DNA from: a phage
Sequence record: PZ445410.1
DNA length: 51,474 bases
Direction: 5' to 3' (one strand)
Part shown: piece after piece, positions 29,655 to 36,577 of the stretch
Layout of the letters: each line of letters starts with the position of its first letter
Numbering within the stretch: the first letter of the stretch is position 1
Notes under the pieces: generated by a model
What the model was told of the DNA's origin: nothing
What the model saw: only the letters and a program-made list of their open reading frames with translations
The model's database searches: none
Position numbers and translations under genes: made by a program

Positions 29655-30107
29655 ATGCATATTATTACTGGTGAGATCCGAAAAGAGCCGCGAGTAAAGC
29701 AAATGCCTAACGGCAGCACACTTTATGTAGTTGAACTTCCAGAGCGATACAAAGATAAAGATGGAAACTGGCAATATACAAACTACAGTTTCTTTTTTAA
29801 TGCTAAAACAGAAGGTATTAAGGGTTGGTATGATGAGGCGTTCCAGGTTGGCAAGGTTATTTCTGTATCTTGCGACACTCTGCGCATTGAAACGCGAGAA
29901 TACAACGGAAAGATGTATTCAAGTTTAATGCCAGGAGGATTTGCAAATCTTATCTTCAGTCAGCGCGGGGAAAGCCAGCAACAATATCAGCAGCGAACGC
30001 AATGGGGATGGGGCCAACCACAACAACAGAATCAACCGCAACAACCGCAACAGCCAAGACAAAGCAATCAGCCACCTATGGATTTTGACGACGACATCCC
30101 TTTTTGA
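29655..30107 (+). CDS. ssb: single-stranded DNA-binding protein
   Basis: OB-fold-like N-terminal region, Gln/Pro-rich linker, C-terminal tip DFDDDIPF as in E. coli SSB. Confidence 0.85.
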   Translation: MHIITGEIRKEPRVKQMPNGSTLYVVELPERYKDKDGNWQYTNYSFFFNAKTEGIKGWYDEAFQVGKVISVSCDTLRIETREYNGKMYSSLMPGGFANLIFSQRGESQQQYQQRTQWGWGQPQQQNQPQQPQQPRQSNQPPMDFDDDIPF

Positions 30108-30111
30108 TCAG

Positions 30112-30136
30112 TAAAGGGGCATTACGCCCCTTTTTC
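30112..30136. terminator. bidirectional intrinsic terminator
   Basis: AGGGGC-ATTAC-GCCCCT flanked by A/T runs. Confidence 0.65.
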
Positions 30137-30379
30137 ACCCTCAGCCATCCCAAGAACAGCAATCACCTTAACAGCAATTCGCTTTGCAAGTTCAGTTTGA
30201 TGAGCGTTCAGCTTTCCAGTGGTCATTATTGACAACATTCCGCTCATACTTCCAAGCCCGTTAAAATCTGACATTGCCGATTTCATGATTGATATTGGTG
30301 AGTGACCCTCATCAGCTATTGTGTGCGCTCTCTCTGACAGGTCTTTAACTACCTGAGCAATTCCTTCACTTTTCGTCAT
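30122..30379 (-). CDS. hypothetical protein (85 aa)
   Basis: ORF, last gene of a minus-strand operon. Confidence 0.45.
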   Translation of the reverse strand: MTKSEGIAQVVKDLSERAHTIADEGHSPISIMKSAMSDFNGLGSMSGMLSIMTTGKLNAHQTELAKRIAVKVIAVLGMAEGEKGA

Positions 30380-30857
30380 TTGCTTTTCCTTCAGGAGTTG
30401 ATTGCTGTTCTGGCATTACAGGCCACGGGCTAATTGATTCCCTTTCTGCTACTGGCTTTTCAGGTTCAATTCCTAAAAACTTTCCTACAAACTCACCAAC
30501 AAAATTTGAGCTATCGCTTACATAAACATGCATCCTGTCTAGATCTGCAACAGTAACGCTATTTGGTGCGATCATGATCCTCTGTTGGTGAAAACCGATA
30601 TACATCACATTAGCCGGACGCTCAAGAGTCCCCATATTTGGCGCAATTACGCCCATTATCCAACAATAATGAATGTTGCCATCAAGCGGCTCACATCCAG
30701 CGTTAAGCCAGTTTACTTTCTGGTGAGGAAACGCCATTGATGAATCAGTAGCATCACGCCGTAACGACCATTTAACTCCGCCAATCTCAATGATTTGTTT
30801 CGGCCTCATCCCGTTGAATTGAGTCACGCCAGCGCCATTTTGATTAATGTTTTGCAT
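30366..30857 (-). CDS. hypothetical protein (163 aa)
   Basis: ORF. Confidence 0.5.
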   Translation of the reverse strand: MQNINQNGAGVTQFNGMRPKQIIEIGGVKWSLRRDATDSSMAFPHQKVNWLNAGCEPLDGNIHYCWIMGVIAPNMGTLERPANVMYIGFHQQRIMIAPNSVTVADLDRMHVYVSDSSNFVGEFVGKFLGIEPEKPVAERESISPWPVMPEQQSTPEGKANDEK

Positions 30858-30871
30858 ATCGGTTAACCTTT

Positions 30872-31195
30872 TTACATTGATTTCATTTTACGCAATGCGC
30901 AGATACAAGCGGCAGCAAGATCGGTTAATTCTTTCTCAATGCCATGATGCGAGCCGTCTGCCTTTTCGGTCATTAGCTCTTTGTATTCCATTTCTACAAT
31001 CGACATTAAGCCGCCTGGCTTGTCAATGTGCGCGTCCCAGGTTTTAGGATAGTGCTTAGTTCTTTCCATAACACTTCCCATAACTGAATCATGTTTGCTA
31101 TCTCGCTCATAATCATCATCATGATCATCACTCCCGATTGAAACTCGCGGCAAATGAATGCGCGGTATTTTATAGCCAGCATAACGGATCTTCAT
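30872..31195 (-). CDS. hypothetical protein (107 aa); weak MazG-like resemblance
   Basis: GAGGGTGAGATA RBS; EMEYKEL...IEKELTDL pattern; preceded by a hairpin. Confidence 0.45.
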   Translation of the reverse strand: MKIRYAGYKIPRIHLPRVSIGSDDHDDDYERDSKHDSVMGSVMERTKHYPKTWDAHIDKPGGLMSIVEMEYKELMTEKADGSHHGIEKELTDLAAACICALRKMKSM

Positions 31196-31244
31196 TATCT
31201 CACCCTCTTGATGAAAAGCGCCCCGAAAGGCGCTTGATTTATTA

Positions 31245-31946
31245 TCAGCCGCAACAGCCAGTAGGCGGAGTCTGAGGAGTAGGCAACTTGAAGTTTACCA
31301 ATTGCTCTACCTGGTTGATTTTGCAATTCAGTGCGGCGGTCTGGTTTGCCTGAGATAGAGCAAAACGCGCTTCCTGCAACTGAGCTTTCATATCGCAAAT
31401 CAAAACAGCCTGAGAATCAGCAAACTGTTGACGAATCAGATCTCGCGTTGCGTTACCTTGTCGCTCAATGTTCAGGTTAGTCTCGCAGCAACATCTTTCG
31501 GCTGCAATCTGCGCCTGATAGGAACGCTCAAGAGCATTAACATCAGCAGCATTAATCGCAGCAACTGTCTGGTTAGTACCGCTAACAATCGCGGTATTCA
31601 GTCCGGCAAAACCTTGCACCGATGCAAGCAGGCTTTGCGTATTCTGGCTGGTAATGCCGTTAAATGTTGATGCGGCGGAGCGCTCAACGGTAAGGTTTGT
31701 GGAGTTTTGGCCTTGCAGAGTTTGCAGCCCCAGGTTGTTTACGCCTGTCTGGATGTTATTAATACCATCAAGAACAGCGTTAGCACCGACAGCAACAGCA
31801 GCACCATCACCACCATAACCACCACGACCATTAAAGCCATTACCAAACCAAGACCCAATCAGGCCACCAACAGCACCGCCAAGACCAGCCGCGCCAGCTT
31901 CGCCACCAAAACCACCACCAGTAGGGAGTAAAGTCATATCTGACAT
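31245..31946 (-). CDS. glycine-zipper protein with Cys-rich C-terminus (233 aa)
   Basis: N-terminal GGGFGGEAGAAGLGGAVGGLIG; Q/N/T-rich middle; CCCE and terminal TGCCG; own AT-rich upstream region. Confidence 0.5.
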   Translation of the reverse strand: MSDMTLLPTGGGFGGEAGAAGLGGAVGGLIGSWFGNGFNGRGGYGGDGAAVAVGANAVLDGINNIQTGVNNLGLQTLQGQNSTNLTVERSAASTFNGITSQNTQSLLASVQGFAGLNTAIVSGTNQTVAAINAADVNALERSYQAQIAAERCCCETNLNIERQGNATRDLIRQQFADSQAVLICDMKAQLQEARFALSQANQTAALNCKINQVEQLVNFKLPTPQTPPTGCCG

Positions 31947-32115
31947 AGTAAATTCCTCTTTGACGTTAAAAAAATTAAAAAAAAGTTTGTAACATTTGCG
32001 TTACGACAAATAGTATGCGCCTAACTGTCAGGAATAGATATAAAGAATTTGTAAGCGATATGTCAGCAACTGGCATAAAGGCGAAAAAAGGCGCAGCCTG
32101 AGCCGCGCCTTGTGA

Positions 32116-32793
32116 TTAAATGTTGTTATTTTTTATTGATTCAATTTGGCTTTTTAATTGCTCTATTTCTTCTTTCATCCGTTTCACATGATGAATTAGC
32201 GGAACAACCAAACGCTCATACATAACGCCTTCTGCAACCATGCCATTGCTTGAGGCGATTTCTGGATCATCACCTTCTTGTAATGGCCTCCAGTGAACGT
32301 ATTCAGACGCAATCTCTCCAACTTCTTCGGCGATCAGTCCATACCAACCCCAATCTTTTCTGTCATTCTCGCAAATCGACCGATACCAGACAGGACGCAT
32401 GTCAAACATTCGATCTGCATATTCATCCATAACAGTTTCAACAGATCTTTTGTATCTTTCGGAAGACGTTGAACGAAGAACGCTTGACACTGCGGCATCT
32501 GGATTGAGATACAAGTTTGCGCCAGCGGTTGTTGTTCCAAGTCTAAAAAAGTAAACGGCCTCTTGTGCTGTTAATGGGTAAAAGTTTCCGCTATGTGTTC
32601 CGCCCTCTAATTCATTTGAAAGCTCGCTTTTCTTCATGTACGTCTTTAACTTGTTGTCAACGTCAGAGCTTGATGGCTTTGTGTTAACTTCTTGCTGCAA
32701 CGTGGAAACATTGCCTTGCAACGTGGAAACATTGCCTTTTAAAGCAGTTATATCAGCCGGAATATTTGTTACGGTAGCCATGATTAAGCCCAC
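32116..32793 (-). CDS. short tail-fibre-like protein carrying a C-terminal S74 intramolecular-chaperone domain
   Basis: SSERYKRSVE (compare SDERLK-type cleavage motif), WGWYGLIAEEVGEI and terminal coiled coil resemble the fibre chaperone domain as I recall it; only ~110 aa precede it. Confidence 0.5.
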   Translation of the reverse strand: MGLIMATVTNIPADITALKGNVSTLQGNVSTLQQEVNTKPSSSDVDNKLKTYMKKSELSNELEGGTHSGNFYPLTAQEAVYFFRLGTTTAGANLYLNPDAAVSSVLRSTSSERYKRSVETVMDEYADRMFDMRPVWYRSICENDRKDWGWYGLIAEEVGEIASEYVHWRPLQEGDDPEIASSNGMVAEGVMYERLVVPLIHHVKRMKEEIEQLKSQIESIKNNNI

Positions 32794-33062
32794 TCCCTAA
32801 GTTTTTGATCCGTCACAACGGTTCTGCTATTGAATAATTTCGCATCGTAATTATCATTAATGATGCGAGCGTTCACAAAATAACCATCATTTTTCTCTAC
32901 AATTTCCTCTCCTTCTTCCGTTACAGATACAACAGTGTAAGTGTTCCCGATAACGTCGAGAAGAATTGCATCCTGAATGGATTCGTTTTCGTTCCATTCA
33001 ATTTCTTCAAGAAAGGCAGAAAACTCTGCCTTGTCTGCAAATTTCAGTGTTAAATCTCTCAT
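32784..33062 (-). CDS. hypothetical protein (92 aa), possible fibre assembly factor
   Basis: ORF coupled between fibre gene and S74-domain gene. Confidence 0.4.
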   Translation of the reverse strand: MRDLTLKFADKAEFSAFLEEIEWNENESIQDAILLDVIGNTYTVVSVTEEGEEIVEKNDGYFVNARIINDNYDAKLFNSRTVVTDQKLREWA

Positions 33063-35017
33063 TATACAATTTCCCCCAATTGATGATCTGTTAATGCCTT
33101 ATGCCAGATCCTAAAGTTTCTAATGTGTCCAAACAAATGGCGCTCTCCAGTTCCTGTTTGTCCGCCAAACCTGATATTTTTATCTCCTGTTACGCCTATG
33201 TAATCGCAGTATGAATCAGACACTGCTATAGCATTGGTGACAACATGAAATTTGCCATCAGATTTTGCAATGCATCCAAAAGTGGATTTTTTTGCAAACA
33301 CATCAGATGCCGCGCTATTAATATATGCCCCAGCAGGCGTTGATAAACTCATGTATAATTTTCCACTTCCTCTATTTATTGCCGCAATTGCTGATTGACC
33401 AGTATTTGCAGCAGCTATATCCCAAACACGAGGGGCAGAATTTGGAGCAACATCCCAACACTTACTAACCTCAAGCAAAAAAGTAAACGGCAATTTATAT
33501 AGGTTGTTTTTTGTTGGAATGCTAACAAGATCGCTAGCTCTCGTTGTTGGCATTGAAGTTATAATAAATGACGATGCTGTATTTCCAAGTTCAATTTGCG
33601 GCGTAGCCATCGTTAACGTTGAATCAGAATAAAATGGTTCGTTGTTAATTTTATTAGTCATGTAAAATGCACAATTAACAGTGTCAACATTTGTATTGGC
33701 TGTATATGTCGCTTGATAATACATCCATTCGCCATCCTGTTCCACTTTAGCGGTTATAAGTGAAGTGTCTCCACTTACCGATGCAACCAAAGTATCAAGA
33801 TCCAAATAAGAATCAGCAGAAAATGTATCTACTCCATCAATAATTGTAGACACTCGAAGCCTGCATCTTGCTTTAGCACCTTTAACCCTACAAGAAAAGG
33901 TGAAACTTTCACCTGACACCAAAGGGAATCTATCGGCTGTAACAACTCCATGAACGGTATAACCTCCAGTAGTACCAACAATACTTTCTACAGGGGTGAC
34001 TGTAGCGTAGTTAAAACCACGATCATCCGTTCCGAAAGTTTTATTTAAAGAAGAATGAATAGTCCAAGAATCTGTTTTATTTGAGTTTCTTAGATAGTTA
34101 GTTCTTTGCCCTTCGATTAAAAGACCTTCTTTTTCAAAACGAGGTTCGTCAATCTCCGCAACAGTCAATACACCTGATTTGTTAATATAAGTTGCTGTTG
34201 AAGCGCGTGAAAATGTAACTACTTTATCTGTTGGCATAGTTATAACATCATTACCAACTGTTATTTTTTTGTAACCAGGTGCAAAGCCTGTAATCATCTC
34301 AAGAGAATCATTAAACGGTATCCACACGTCGGGCAGCGGTTGCAATAAATCTTTGTAAGGTTCTGCGGCCTGCCTTGCGTATTCCTCCGCTTGATCTCGC
34401 GCACTTTCAGCTCCTGCCTTTGCAGTGTTCGCAGCGTTACGCGCGGATTCAGCGCCAGACTTTGCTGTTTCAGCGCCAGTCTTTGCAGTGTTTGCAGCGT
34501 CGCGCGCGGATTCAGCAGCGGTCTTTGCAGTATCAGCGCCTTTCTTGCTGTTTTCTGCATTTGTTGCGCTTTTCTTCGCGTTATTCTCGCTAGTTTTAGC
34601 GGCCTTCTGGCTTGCTGCGGCCGCAGCAGCATCGCTCTTTACGTCAGCCTGTATCTGTTGAAGTTTATCCCAATCAAATGTTTCGATGATCTCAATGAAT
34701 CTGGCAAATTCAGTTTCTTTACCCTGGTAATATCGCAGTGTTTCAGCGACATCTTGCGCCAGGCCATCAACAGTTATTGAATCATGAAGCATGATCAGAT
34801 AGTTTGTCTTTGCTACAACAGCGCCGCCAGTAGTAATGGCGCGAATGCTTGTGTCGCTAATAACCTCAGTGATTACAGCGGCTTGCATTGGATTTGTTAA
34901 GAAAAATATTGTTGCACCAGGGCGAATGAGTGTTAGCTGTTCGCGCCATTTTGTGCCGTATCCAGTTATATAACCTTGCGCGTCCATTGACGCCTGTCCG
35001 GTTCTGTAAATTGCCAT
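33062..35017 (-). CDS. side tail fibre protein
   Basis: T7 gp17-like N-terminal virion-attachment region, Ala-rich tandem repeats, C-terminal lectin-like region; GGGAG RBS at chosen ATG. Confidence 0.65.
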
Positions 35018-35073
35018 GCGTTTTCTCCCATGTTGTATGTTAATGTCAATGCAGATAATAGCATTTGACAAGG

Positions 35074-35098
35074 CAAAAAAAAACCCCGCAATGCGGGG
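35074..35098 (-). terminator. intrinsic terminator (minus strand)
   Basis: CCCCGC-AAT-GCGGGG preceded on the plus strand by A9. Confidence 0.65.
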
Positions 35099-35115
35099 TA
35101 AAGTAGCAGTGACAT

Positions 35116-36048
35116 TTAGAGAATTGATTCAGGTTTGAAAACCTTCCTCTCTATCCCTTGCCTGTAATTATCATTAATCGGCATCATAATTTCAAGTCCT
35201 CTTTCCTCGGCAGCAATGATCGCGTCACGGTCTGTACTCTTACAGACAACTCTCATTCTTCTGTTTCCCTTATACCTGTAAGCCACAATCTCAATGTTAG
35301 TTGCATCAAAGCAGGCCCAGACCTCTTGACCAGTTGCAAGGTGGATGTGTTGCGCATCAATCCAGTCAACGCAAAGATAGATCGTCTTATCTGTACTTCC
35401 TGTTCTCACAATCGACCCTCGCGTGTAGTCCTTTGCGAGAAAAGACTGATTGCCGTCTTCATCAATGAAAAGCACATTGCACATTTCATCATCAATCTCA
35501 TCTGAGTGTACCAGGTGACACGGTAACGCGTGAATGTATCGGCCATCTTTTACGCCGCAATCATAATGACCATCTTCAGGCGGGTATATTCCTTCATATG
35601 TGCTTAACGGCGTGCGATCAAATTTTAGTGTTTTTGACATAACGCGCTCGCAGCATTCATGGCTTGCCTGTTTCCCAAACGAATAACCAGAATCACGAGA
35701 TACTCGCTTATTTGCCTTGATCCTATAGTCCTGCGGAACTTTTCCAAGAAAACGGCCCAAAATATTGATCACTTCGCTGTAAGGTTCTCCGGTTAGCTTC
35801 ATGATCCAACCAATTCCGGTATCATTACCGCACACGTTGCAGATCGCACCGCCATCGCCTTTTTTATCGCCAAGTTTATCCGTCCATCTGAAGCGATCCT
35901 TTCCGCCGCAGTGTGGGCAAGATTGATGCTTTCCGTTAAAAACTTCATTTGGAAGACCGCAAATACTTTGTAGCGCCTCACGCCACAATCCTTGCATATA
36001 TGGGAGAACATCTTCCTTTTGATAAACCATAAAGTTTTCGTTATTCAT
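35116..36048 (-). CDS. DNA primase (zinc-binding)
   Basis: CPHCGG...CNVCG zinc-binding motif; acidic DEIDDE / DEDG region; GAGGTG RBS. Confidence 0.6.
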
Positions 36049-36103
36049 ATACACCTCAAACAAAAAAGCCTGACAGATGATAACATCATGCCAGGCATTG
36101 TTT

Positions 36104-36577
36104 TTAGCAATTAGTGCTTTCAGGTTTATACAGGAATCCGCCAGGTTCATAATCTGACATTCTTACCACTCGCAACATTTCACGCTTATCACATCTCTTT
36201 GTGAGCGGTTTGCCATTGGAATCAAATCGCAGGTCTGGACGACAGAATGATGCGCGATAGCCTTGACATCCATATTTTTTGTAATCGTTATGCACCTTTT
36301 GAGCGCCAGCGGCTGAAATCATACCGCGAACGCGCCACTGATTTACAGTTTGCTGGCTAACGTTAAGACGTTTTGCCATTGCTGACACGCTTCCGTAATA
36401 CTCAATAAGGATGTCAAGTCGCGCTTTTAGTCCGGCGCGCACTTCATCTTTTAAAACATAGTATCCCGTAGGGCGCTTGCGCTTCTTCTTATCCTTTCCT
36501 CTTCGAGTTCCGTTATTGCCATTAATTGTGCGCTTGTCAATCTTGCCTGTTGATACTGCGATTCGTTGCTCTTTCAT
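36104..36577 (-). CDS. HTH DNA-binding protein (Cro/YdaS-like)
   Basis: SVSAMAKRLNVSQQTVNQWRVRG helix-turn-helix; basic N-terminus; divergent from helicase gene. Confidence 0.5.
   Translation of the reverse strand: MKEQRIAVSTGKIDKRTINGNNGTRRGKDKKKRKRPTGYYVLKDEVRAGLKARLDILIEYYGSVSAMAKRLNVSQQTVNQWRVRGMISAAGAQKVHNDYKKYGCQGYRASFCRPDLRFDSNGKPLTKRCDKREMLRVVRMSDYEPGGFLYKPESTNC

Follow-up and report, generated by a model that had tools for sequence, protein, structure and literature searches.

A probable standard lateral tail fibre locus of a T1-like phage, with recombination of its distal segment

Gene Organization of the Locus

The DNA analysed, called the window here, was a stretch of 51,474 nucleotides (PZ445410.1) from a T1-like phage (Drexlerviridae, Tempevirinae, Hanrivervirus). 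The region of interest was 98.2% identical to that of Escherichia phage phiE31-2, the closest GenBank phage, which also belongs to Hanrivervirus. An earlier note on this DNA had claimed three adjacent ORFs on the minus strand, and the ORF list contained all three of them in place. The genes and hairpins of the region were as follows:

35073-35099, minus strand, intrinsic-terminator-like hairpin (7-bp GC stem, 9 U; -12.5 kcal/mol, z -2.8)
33062-35017, minus strand, fibre gene (ATG at 35017; encodes a lateral tail fibre protein of 651 aa)
32784-33062, minus strand, 92-aa ORF (acidic protein, phrog_1361)
32116-32781, minus strand, gene of the S74-domain protein (221 aa, most likely ATG at 32781)
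32082-32111, minus strand, intrinsic-terminator-like hairpin (10-bp stem, 6 U; -18.8 kcal/mol, z -4.25)
31245-31946, minus strand, 233-aa ORF of a second minus-strand unit
30872-31195, minus strand, 107-aa ORF of the second minus-strand unit
30366-30857, minus strand, 163-aa ORF of the second minus-strand unit
30122-30379, minus strand, 85-aa ORF of the second minus-strand unit
30113-30133, no strand given, GC-rich hairpin that lies between the stop of ssb (30107) and the 85-aa ORF's end

The open frame of the fibre gene extended 5' to a TTG at 35071, and translation from the ATG at 35017 gave 651 aa. A GGGAG Shine-Dalgarno sequence was located 7 nt 5' of this ATG, and the fibre homologues began with MA(I/L)YR. 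The TTG at 35071 was rejected as the start because it lay inside the U-tail of the terminator behind the primase gene and had no Shine-Dalgarno sequence. The start of the 92-aa ORF overlapped the fibre stop by 1 nt (TAATG), and the ATG of the S74 ORF was 2 nt past the 92-aa stop. Against phage morffagbaw, fibre residues 1-300 had a dN/dS of 0.11, the S74 protein one of 0.18, and the 92-aa ORF one of 0.37. These low values indicated that all three were genes under purifying selection and not chance ORFs.

The hairpin at 35073-35099 was directly 3' of the primase stop and separated the primase gene from the fibre unit. The hairpin at 32082-32111, which was absent from the output of the consensus terminator scan, was directly 3' of the S74 stop and closed the three-gene unit. 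Furthermore, the hairpin at 30113-30133 was found where the convergent units meet, and bidirectional terminators were annotated at the equivalent place in T1 and AHP42. The sigma-70 promoter scan found 15 candidates, compared with 14.4 expected in shuffled sequence; therefore, no promoter was assigned to the fibre unit. The earlier placement of the module between ssb and primase was correct for the fibre unit, but four more minus-strand ORFs (30122-31946) separated the S74 gene from ssb.

Position of the Locus in T1-like Phages

The three genes were annotated in phiE31-2 as tail fiber protein, hypothetical protein, and peptidase S74 protein, respectively. This annotation and the family anchor domain of the first gene were in agreement with the previous description of the region as a side (lateral) tail-fibre module. 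The fibre gene directly followed the primase gene on the same strand and was convergent with ssb in T1, BrunoManser, PeterMerian, phiE31-2, and morffagbaw, and this arrangement was also present in Rogunavirus AHP42, Kyungwonvirus CS01, and LF82-10. The wider order regulator-primase-fibre, convergent with ssb-erf-exoVIII, was shared by T1, BrunoManser, PeterMerian, AHP42, CS01, LF82-10, and morffagbaw. All inspected Drexlerviridae genomes of Escherichia or Cronobacter phages shared this synteny, and they represented at least four subfamilies or genera. Webervirus GH-K3 was an exception, with the fibre gene adjoining ssb on one strand and the recombination genes between fibre and primase. A previous study indicated that the flanks of the Drexlerviridae fibre locus were conserved and syntenic, and that the fibre gene had just its 5' end in common (BASEL, PMC8594841, S1C Fig legend).

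The lateral tail fibres of Drexlerviridae (ST26 of T1; Bas01-Bas13 of BASEL) were similar to that of the window in position, N-terminal anchor, and variable distal part. PeterMerian (bas05_0029-0031) possessed the same three-gene set of 655, 92, and 231 aa. In contrast, T1 and BrunoManser had a single fibre gene, whose C-terminus was unrelated to that of the window. In addition, the window carried the four-gene unit before ssb, whereas PeterMerian had no such unit.

One alternative takes all three genes together as a host-range cassette of foreign origin that entered the replication region, with its unusual location and strand as the sign of this. The module was indeed far from the main tail operon, on the opposite strand, and bounded by two terminator-like hairpins. 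However, T1 and every Escherichia or Cronobacter Drexlerviridae genome inspected had it in the same position and orientation. Because the place and orientation were the same across T1-like genomes, the position was considered ancestral to the family, and a family-wide position means that placement and strand are no evidence of acquisition. The earlier argument from placement and strand was thus contradicted by the same position in T1 and in members of four further subfamilies or genera. Universal conservation at this position, named at that time as a finding that would speak against acquisition, was observed for the position by the synteny comparison and in PMC8594841.

Anchor and Stalk of the Fibre

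34643-35017, minus strand, virion-anchor domain (fibre residues 1-125), conserved across Drexlerviridae
34373-34672, minus strand, Ala-rich helical stalk (fibre residues ~116-215) with a tandem repeat inside; AF2 helix of low confidence

The family-conserved part of the fibre was only residues 1 to ~125-130, corresponding to the 5' ~390 bp of the gene. The anchor was found by tblastn in 896 phage records, mostly of Drexlerviridae, and 770 of them covered at least 80% of the query. ST26 of T1 matched fibre residues 1-179 only, with 47% identity. The PDB search matched the fibre N-terminus to residues 1-175 of Depo32 (PDB 7LZJ) with an E of 7e-53, and the matched part has been named an N-terminal anchor domain that is conserved (PMC10581125). 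Depo32, from Klebsiella phage GH-K3 (Webervirus), was therefore homologous to the window fibre in its N-terminal anchor and helical bundle (residues 1-175), but its distal part was a beta-helix capsule depolymerase, unlike that of the window. The N-terminal part common to the two proteins was invisible in the cryo-EM map of Depo32.

The fibre had been said to possess a T7 gp17-like N-terminus. This was not borne out: residues 1-130 had no Pfam match at E<=10, including the T7 gp17-type N-terminus (PF03906), and no T7 gp17 chain was found in the PDB at E<=1. For PF08400 (phage_tail_N), no match at E<=10 was obtained with the N-terminus of the window or T1, and 1H12 scored 229.7 bits. The tblastn similarity of the anchor to some lambdoid fibre N-termini was weak (30-33%). 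The Ala-rich tandem repeats, on the other hand, were confirmed by Tandem Repeats Finder as a 63-bp unit (21 aa, or three heptads) repeated 2.2 times at 34401-34540. The full-length AF2 model, which was of low confidence, had a long helix at residues 116-215. Fibre residues 1-~125 would be the anchor specific to the family, by which the fibre, presumably a trimer, is plugged into the tail, and the Ala-rich coiled coil of ~100 residues would be the stalk.

Exchange of the Distal Segment

34097-34342, minus strand, conserved junction (fibre residues 226-307), with invariant alignment columns and common to all alleles of this fibre type
33170-34096, minus strand, exchangeable cassette (fibre residues 308-616) with most of the GTA_spike_fiber/CBM_4_9-like and LamG-like domains
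33065-33169, minus strand, conserved C-terminal strands (fibre residues 617-651), from the alignment

The stretch 33170-34096 had no nucleotide match to the 92%-identical sister phage morffagbaw, and the flanks were 91-93% identical. The protein identity to morffagbaw was also sparse across fibre residues 308-616. The GC content of this cassette was 0.381, at the 1.2th percentile of the genome, compared with 0.440 for the whole genome. Moreover, 33030-34342 (1.3 kb) was 82.5% identical in DNA to a Queuovirinae-like metagenomic contig, L012, whose neighbouring genes were 47-74% identical in protein. The Stf of the lambda-like phage 1H12 aligned over fibre residues 132-651 only, with 60% protein identity. 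The modular composition proposed before was thus well founded, with a family anchor joined to a distal part that had relatives in other phage families.

These data also bear on the insertion of the whole module as a foreign cassette. The three genes recurred together in other phage families, and part of the module was low in GC. However, a foreign composition of the whole block was rejected, since its GC content was 0.431 compared with 0.440 for the genome and the low GC was limited to the swapped core. Furthermore, the fibre gene began with 390 bp that were family-specific and co-linear with the flanks, and the identity to morffagbaw was broken at 33170-34096 only. Insertion of the entire module is considered highly improbable. 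Very likely, the region is the lateral tail fibre locus usual for T1-like phages, in which the distal segment has been recombined; such a locus, with its place and its mosaicism, has already been documented for these phages. What is exchanged is the 3' portion of the fibre gene (~0.9-1.3 kb) rather than the module of three genes, so horizontal acquisition held for the distal part of the fibre but not for the three genes as a unit. Homologous recombination in the conserved flanks (residues 226-307 and 617-651) would swap the core of residues 308-616, the presumed glycan-binding part, also between families. For retargeting such fibres, the swap boundaries at ~308-616 and the coupled 92-aa gene define what moves together.

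The side tail fibres of lambdoid phages and prophages of E. coli (Jouyvirus 1H12 gp23-gp24) were 60-68% identical to the window fibre in the C-terminal ~430 residues and were followed by the same 92-aa gene with an overlapping start. A lambdoid relative of 673 aa was named 'prophage tail fiber N-terminal domain-containing protein'. The N-terminus of the lambdoid side fibres was PF08400, unlike that of the window. The Queuovirinae block (Nonagvirus JenP1 gp23-gp29 and L012) contained all seven genes in the same order as the window. The fibre C-terminus of L012 reached 90% protein and 82% DNA identity to the window, compared with 47-74% protein identity for the other genes. Unlike in the window, the Queuovirinae block followed gpJ in the structural region, and the fibre anchor of L012 was PF08400.

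C-Terminal Domains of the Fibre

The NCBIfam model GTA_spike_fiber (NF048003) matched fibre residues 300-494 at 68 bits, against a cut-off of 36, over profile positions 1-181 of 182. The GTA_spike_fiber/CBM_4_9-like domain was assigned to residues 300-494 and the LamG-like domain to residues 523-646. Laminin_G_3 (PF13385) scored 21.4 bits in the window fibre, below the cut-off of 27.6. Among 15 fibre homologues, Laminin_G_3 matched in 10 (best E 6.6e-7) and CBM_4_9 in 12, and a 67%-identical protein was named 'LamG-like jellyroll fold domain-containing' by NCBI. Accordingly, the lectin-like C-terminus described in the earlier note was supported by the LamG and CBM matches of the homologues, but the window protein itself was under the Laminin_G_3 cut-off. 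The AF2 model of the full 651-aa fibre, from a 15-sequence alignment, had a pLDDT of 50 and a pTM of 0.30, which was too poor for a fold search.

The C-terminal ~420 residues would consist of beta-sandwich domains of the carbohydrate-binding type, first a GTA-head-spike/CBM-like one and then a LamG-like one. The domain layout suggests that the 651-aa fibre is located in the virion and binds a glycan. Its C-terminus probably binds a surface glycan (O-antigen or LPS core) as a reversible first contact, and irreversible binding would be the task of the J-tip receptor-binding locus, which is in another part of the genome.

The 92-aa Protein

The 92-aa protein gene was immediately 3' of the fibre gene in 167 phage records. 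KarlJaspers encoded an identical 92-aa protein. Its start overlapped the fibre stop by 4 nt in all four loci fetched (1H12, L6jm, VogelGryff, and JenP1). Lambdoid phages carried the fibre and 92-aa pair, and 1H12 had it without the third gene. Judging from this co-occurrence, the 92-aa protein is an apparent obligate partner of the fibre C-terminus in several phage families. AF2 predicted an alpha/beta fold with a pLDDT of 83. The model had no significant PDB match, with no known chaperone or adaptor among the hits, and the sequence had no homology to known fibre chaperone families (Tfa / gp38 / gp57-type). The protein is predicted, with middling confidence, to be an assembly factor or adaptor that is translationally coupled to the fibre. 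It would most likely help the fibre C-terminus fold and assemble, or stay bound to it as an adaptor.

The S74-Domain Protein

32734-32781, minus strand, N-terminal motif MATVTNIPADITALKG at the start of the S74 protein
32119-32466, minus strand, S74 intramolecular-chaperone domain from S106, by Pfam and PHROG

The S74 protein consisted of the N-terminal motif, a heptad coiled coil, a short beta region, and the S74 domain. PF13884 matched residues 110-166 of the 225-aa ORF translation at 22.4 bits, which was marginal against the gathering score of 22. The match to phrog_3299 had an E of 2e-91, and phrog_454, phrog_1699, and other fibre C-termini were also matched. The S74 motif S106-S-E-R109-Y-K111 (S-x-x-R-x-K) was present, together with the G-x-I-A-(Q/E) helix. 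R109, K111, G148, I150, and A151 were invariant in a six-sequence alignment, and the position of S106 was Ser in five of the six rows and Cys in L6jm. We take S106 and K111 to be the catalytic dyad, as assigned from the K1F endosialidase. The phmmer search of the S74 protein against the PDB gave only chance-level coiled-coil matches (P22 gp26 and fibritin, E 0.02-0.4).

The 15-aa N-terminal motif was common to the S74-ended proteins of 351-576 aa from JenP1, L6jm, and VogelGryff (T5-like and Queuovirinae). Its versions, (M)ATVTNIPADITALKG, MVTKTVIPADITKLKN, AKTITNIPKDITNLKN, and MVTKTIIPTDITTLKS, stood before bodies of 221-576 aa. The third gene of Queuovirinae encoded 351 aa with a real passenger domain, compared with 221 aa in the window. 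The L-shaped fibres of T5-like phages (DT57C LtfA/LtfB, AKFV33-type, and L6jm ORF134-132) comprised a tail-anchored main fibre and a downstream second protein, whose N-terminal segment for attachment was conserved and whose C-terminus was a self-cleaving chaperone, similar to the layout predicted for the window. L6jm had the 92-aa gene and the N-terminal motif in common with the window, and also the C-terminus of the fibre, at 47%. However, the T5-type anchor was different (LtfA N-terminus and LtfC collar), and the second subunit of L6jm had 576 aa instead of 221. As with LtfA/LtfB, the second fibre-protein gene of the window was downstream and had a conserved N-terminal segment independent of the variable body. 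Branched lateral tail fibres of two proteins with an N-terminal docking segment have been described (PMC4728585, PMC10713586), and the attachment of the second protein in DT57C is itself a genetic inference.

In view of this layout, there is about an even chance that the product of the third gene is a second, small subunit of the fibre. The S74 protein would dock on the main fibre through its conserved N-terminal motif of 15 residues. The S74 domain would trimerise the protein and then self-cleave at T105|S106, leaving a stub of ~105 residues. Such a short mature part leaves little room for a receptor-binding domain. Both the docking and the self-cleavage are inferred from sequence.

The S74 protein might instead act in trans to help the 651-aa fibre fold, as a chaperone, and be no component of the virion. 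The fibre had no S74 domain of its own by Pfam, the S74 gene was in its transcription unit, and the passenger part of the S74 protein was very short. In line with such a role, the homologues of PeterMerian and VogelGryff carried the name 'putative lateral tail fiber chaperone' in the BASEL annotation. However, characterised S74 domains (K1F endosialidase and T5 pb1) work in cis, each on its own polypeptide. Moreover, the homologous third genes of 351-576 aa had large, variable, fibre-like passengers, and the N-terminal motif was conserved independently of the passenger. In addition, 1H12 had a 60%-identical fibre C-terminus, yet no S74 gene. A role in trans is regarded as rather unlikely, and a second fibre subunit is preferred.

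Another explanation is that the S74 ORF is the functionless, decaying stump of a longer, LtfB-like second fibre gene. Its match to a PHROG profile of 1385 positions was limited to the final ~220, and a 21-bp duplication polymorphism was found within it. The homologue was split in two in orkinos, AV105, JLBYU19, ityhuna, brachmannus, and JLBYU10, by frameshift in several relatives. On the contrary, the start codon was intact, as were both the N-terminal and the catalytic motif, and the dN/dS against morffagbaw given above was low (0.18). The protein was full-length in ~45 coliphages, and 47 records covered at least 80% of the query, most with 64-70% identity. Decay of the gene therefore seems improbable.

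Genes Travelling with the Fibre

The fibre C-terminus, the 92-aa protein, and the 15-residue motif of the third gene might form a cross-family 'socket and plug', accompanied by four travelling genes of fibre- or adsorption-linked function, but this is a tentative proposal that we think less probable than its opposite. If true, siphophages that are unrelated (T1-like, T5-like, and Queuovirinae) hang interchangeable second subunits on a common main fibre, and the 221-aa protein is the minimal plug.

Neither the 163-aa nor the 107-aa ORF had a phmmer match in the PDB. The PDB matches of the 233-aa ORF to influenza HA2 and MlaD had E>=0.04 only and were treated as compositional. In both Hanrivervirus and Queuovirinae, the four-gene unit (30122-31946) accompanied the fibre genes, and one of its genes was also present in T5-like phages. 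The four conserved genes may have an unrecognised role connected with lateral fibres or with adsorption. Together with the N-terminal motif of the third gene, they are modest leads for work on fibre assembly.

Position and Strand of the Fibre Locus

Along its entire length, the 2.9-kb region shared 98.2% identity with Escherichia phage phiE31-2 (Drexlerviridae; Tempevirinae; Hanrivervirus), in which the three genes are annotated as "tail fiber protein", "hypothetical protein", and "peptidase S74 domain-containing protein". Furthermore, bas06_0036 of the BASEL phage KarlJaspers was 100% identical to the 92-aa protein of the window, and the genes of the whole window were arranged as in a T1-like siphophage (terminase, head, tail, tape measure, J, exoVIII/Erf/SSB, primase/helicase, and lysis). 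Records named "Campylobacter phage" or "Listeria phage" among the phage database matches carried coliphage-typical sequence (T1-like, T5-like, and rV5-like) and look mislabelled or contaminant.

The earlier note took the three genes for a horizontally acquired host-range cassette, mainly on account of their place and strand. The observation itself was correct. In the relatives listed, the genes run regulator, primase, fibre and converge with exoVIII, erf, ssb.

Relatives with the same order
T1: fibre ST26, 32695-34881, minus strand, flanked by ST27 and primase ST24; bidirectional terminators annotated
BrunoManser: Tunavirinae
PeterMerian: Tempevirinae
morffagbaw
AHP42: Rogunavirinae
CS01: Kyungwonvirus
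LF82-10

Placement and strand were therefore no sign of acquisition; the earlier note regarded universal conservation of the module at this place as contrary to its reading, and, as to where the locus lies, such conservation was found. The fibre of Webervirus GH-K3 adjoins ssb likewise, but the two share one strand, and recombination genes lie between primase and fibre. The interpretation held in its gist (the fibre is modular and horizontal exchange took place) but erred in its main argument and misjudged how large the exchanged unit is. All central points are already in the literature and the GenBank annotation; mild novelty is confined to three points: where exactly the swap begins and ends, the N-terminal motif that the third gene shares across families, and the unit of four genes that travels along. 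In morffagbaw (locus L002, 4551-4991), an extra "endonuclease" ORF of ~460 bp, probably a homing-endonuclease insertion, lay just after ssb; it was absent at 30104-30113 of the window.

Gene Boundaries and Hairpins

The three minus-strand ORFs were found as described, with a hairpin at either end.

Features of the locus
35099-35073, minus: terminator-like hairpin, 7-bp GC stem and nine U, directly 3' of the primase stop
33062-35017, minus: fibre, 651 aa
32784-33062, minus: 92-aa ORF
32116-32781, minus: S74-domain protein
32111-32082, minus: terminator-like hairpin, 10-bp GC stem and six U, directly 3' of the S74 stop

The open frame of the fibre begins at TTG 35071, which was ruled out as the start because it is covered by the hairpin following the primase stop, while ATG 35017 has a GGGAG Shine-Dalgarno sequence 7 nt upstream. 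Therefore, the 651-aa reading is correct. The start of the 92-aa ORF overlapped the stop of the fibre by 1 nt (TAATG). For the S74 ORF, ATG 32781, 2 nt past the 92-aa stop, is the most likely start and gives a product of 221 aa. The hairpin at 32111-32082 had a free energy of -18.8 kcal/mol (z -4.25), and no shuffled sequence was equally stable. Since such hairpins stand at both ends, the three genes form one bracketed unit. The longest primase ORF (35116-36150, 344 aa) overlapped the upstream regulator ORF (36104-36577) by 47 nt. The same long form is annotated in phiE31-2; the true start is probably internal, because morffagbaw, T1, and PeterMerian annotate ~310 aa.

Mosaic Structure of the Fibre

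The fibre is a three-part mosaic. "T7 gp17-like N-terminus" was the sole descriptor that failed: residues 1-130 had no Pfam match at E<=10, and no T7 gp17 chain appeared in the PDB sequence search at E<=1. The N-terminus instead matched the anchor found in fibres and tailspikes of other Drexlerviridae (896 phage records), with 47% identity to T1 ST26 and an E of 7e-53 to residues 1-175 of Depo32, the GH-K3 tailspike (PDB 7LZJ). The N-terminal part of Depo32 was named a conserved anchor domain at the N-terminus and is invisible in the map (PMC10581125). The Ala-rich repeats were present: at 34401-34540, a 63-bp unit, which encodes 21 residues or three heptads, occurs in 2.2 copies. Against morffagbaw (92% identical), dN/dS was 0.11 for fibre residues 1-300, 0.37 for the 92-aa ORF, and 0.18 for the S74 protein; all three are under purifying selection.

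In the distal part, residues 300-494 matched the NCBIfam "phage head spike fiber domain" NF048003 (GTA_spike_fiber) with 68 bits (cut-off 36), and CBM_4_9 was also touched there in 12 of 15 homologues. Residues 523-646 of the window protein scored 21.4 bits against Laminin_G_3, below the cut-off of 27.6; ten of the 15 homologues matched this family (best E 6.6e-7), and a protein with 67% identity bears the NCBI name "LamG-like jellyroll fold domain-containing". Because of these matches and this naming, "lectin-like" seems a reasonable label. With a pLDDT of 50, the AF2 model of the entire fibre could not be used.

The T1 fibre matched residues 1-179 only. The side tail fibre of the lambda-like Jouyvirus 1H12 aligned only over residues 132-651 (60% overall), with very high identity from ~residue 224 to ~520. 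Morffagbaw was 91-93% identical in nucleotides on both flanks of 33169-34095 and had no nucleotide match across it (fibre residues ~308-616); protein identity there was sparse, rising again in the last ~35 residues. The GC content of the swapped segment was 0.381 compared with 0.440 for the genome, and only 1.2% of equal-sized windows were as low. For the C-terminal 427 residues, the best relatives outside the clade were 693-aa proteins (90% and 85%) with a PF08400 N-terminus on ~60-kb contigs, followed, at 68%, by a 673-aa side tail fibre that is very common in E. coli prophages. The contig with the 90% match (L012) was Queuovirinae-like; 33030-34342 of the window was 82.5% identical to it in nucleotides, whereas the adjoining genes reached only 47-74% in protein. 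The morffagbaw break, the low GC, and the L012, 1H12, and prophage matches indicate a real and recent inter-family exchange, whose unit is 0.9-1.3 kb of 3' sequence in the fibre gene. Thus, the modularity and exchange proposed earlier stood, and the three-gene module as the exchanged unit did not. The conserved residues 226-307 and 617-651 (invariant alignment columns) could act as recombination arms. The same general conclusion was drawn in 2026 from incongruent fibre and genome trees (PMC13164509).

The S74-Domain Protein

In long fibre profiles, the match of the S74 protein was confined to the final ~220 positions (phrog_3299, 1164-1384 of 1385), which first suggested a remnant. Four observations were against this. 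At least 80% of the protein was covered in 47 phage records, nearly all coliphages and most at 64-70% identity; its dN/dS was low, as given; the S106-S-E-R109-Y-K111 motif and the G-x-I-A helix were intact; and its N-terminal 15 residues (MATVTNIPADITALKG) also begin much longer S74-ended proteins in third position.

Proteins with a MATVTNIPADITALKG-type N-terminus and an unrelated body
L6jm ORF132: T5-like, 576 aa
VogelGryff bas25_0024: 388 aa
JenP1 gp25: 351 aa

In tblastn, the full L6jm N-terminal segment was present in AKFV33-type T5-like phages. For DT57C/DT571-2 and phiEco32, genetic arguments have been made for lateral fibres of two proteins, the second of which is attached to the first through a conserved N-terminal segment (PMC4728585, PMC10713586). 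The BASEL annotation makes the S74 protein a trans-acting chaperone, which is the alternative. Because of the evidence against a remnant, the shared motif, and the two-protein precedent, the favoured reading is a minimal second fibre subunit, which would dock by its N-terminus and shed its chaperone.

A perfect 21-bp tandem duplication at 32696-32738 added one heptad (GNVSTLQ GNVSTLQ) to the S74 coiled coil; morffagbaw had a single copy. In orkinos, AV105, JLBYU19, ityhuna, brachmannus, and JLBYU10, the homologue came in two pieces or as two annotated ORFs, which may be frameshifts, pseudogenes, or sequencing errors. In the alignment of six S74-domain sequences (A3), ORF132 of Salmonella phage L6jm (L008), its second fibre protein, had a cysteine (ICDERLK) where the nucleophile serine would stand.

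The 92-aa Protein

The 92-aa gene accompanied this fibre C-terminus in 167 phage records, from Drexlerviridae, lambda-like, Dhillonvirus, Queuovirinae, T5-like, and rV5-like phages. The start/stop overlap was 4 nt in all four loci fetched (1H12, L6jm, VogelGryff, and JenP1), and 1H12 had this gene without the third. No Pfam or NCBIfam family was matched, and the PHROG was of the function-unknown class. The model was good (pLDDT 83) and showed a small alpha/beta fold for which no significant structural neighbour was found. From its coupling, the protein is a putative assembly factor or adaptor. In 1H12 (L007, 5906-9230), the fibre locus was followed by a 97-aa hydrophobic ORF and the sitABCD manganese/iron transporter cargo operon.

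The Four-ORF Unit before ssb

Past the terminator at 32111-32082, a second unit was found.

Features of the second unit
31946-30122, minus: four ORFs (233, 107, 163, and 85 aa), before ssb
31245-31946, minus: 233-aa protein, Gly-rich at the N-terminus (GGGFGGEAGAAGLGGAVGG...) and Q/N-rich in its helical body, with the motifs CCCE and, C-terminally, GCCG

The unit ended in a hairpin common to the convergent ssb gene. Nonagvirus JenP1 (gp23-gp29) and L012 had counterparts, identically ordered, of each of the seven genes that run from the fibre through the 85-aa ORF, the four-ORF unit being syntenic with JenP1 gp26-gp29 and L012 at 47-74% protein identity. The four genes were absent from PeterMerian, BrunoManser, and T1. 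Against the PDB, the 233-aa protein gave only chance-level matches (E>=0.04, influenza HA2 and MlaD). Its homologues adjoined lateral fibre genes in Queuovirinae, and one, split in two ORFs, lay right after the L-shaped tail fibre gene in the T5-like vB_SenS-3. The 163-aa protein was 100% identical to that of morffagbaw, though dS was 0.27.
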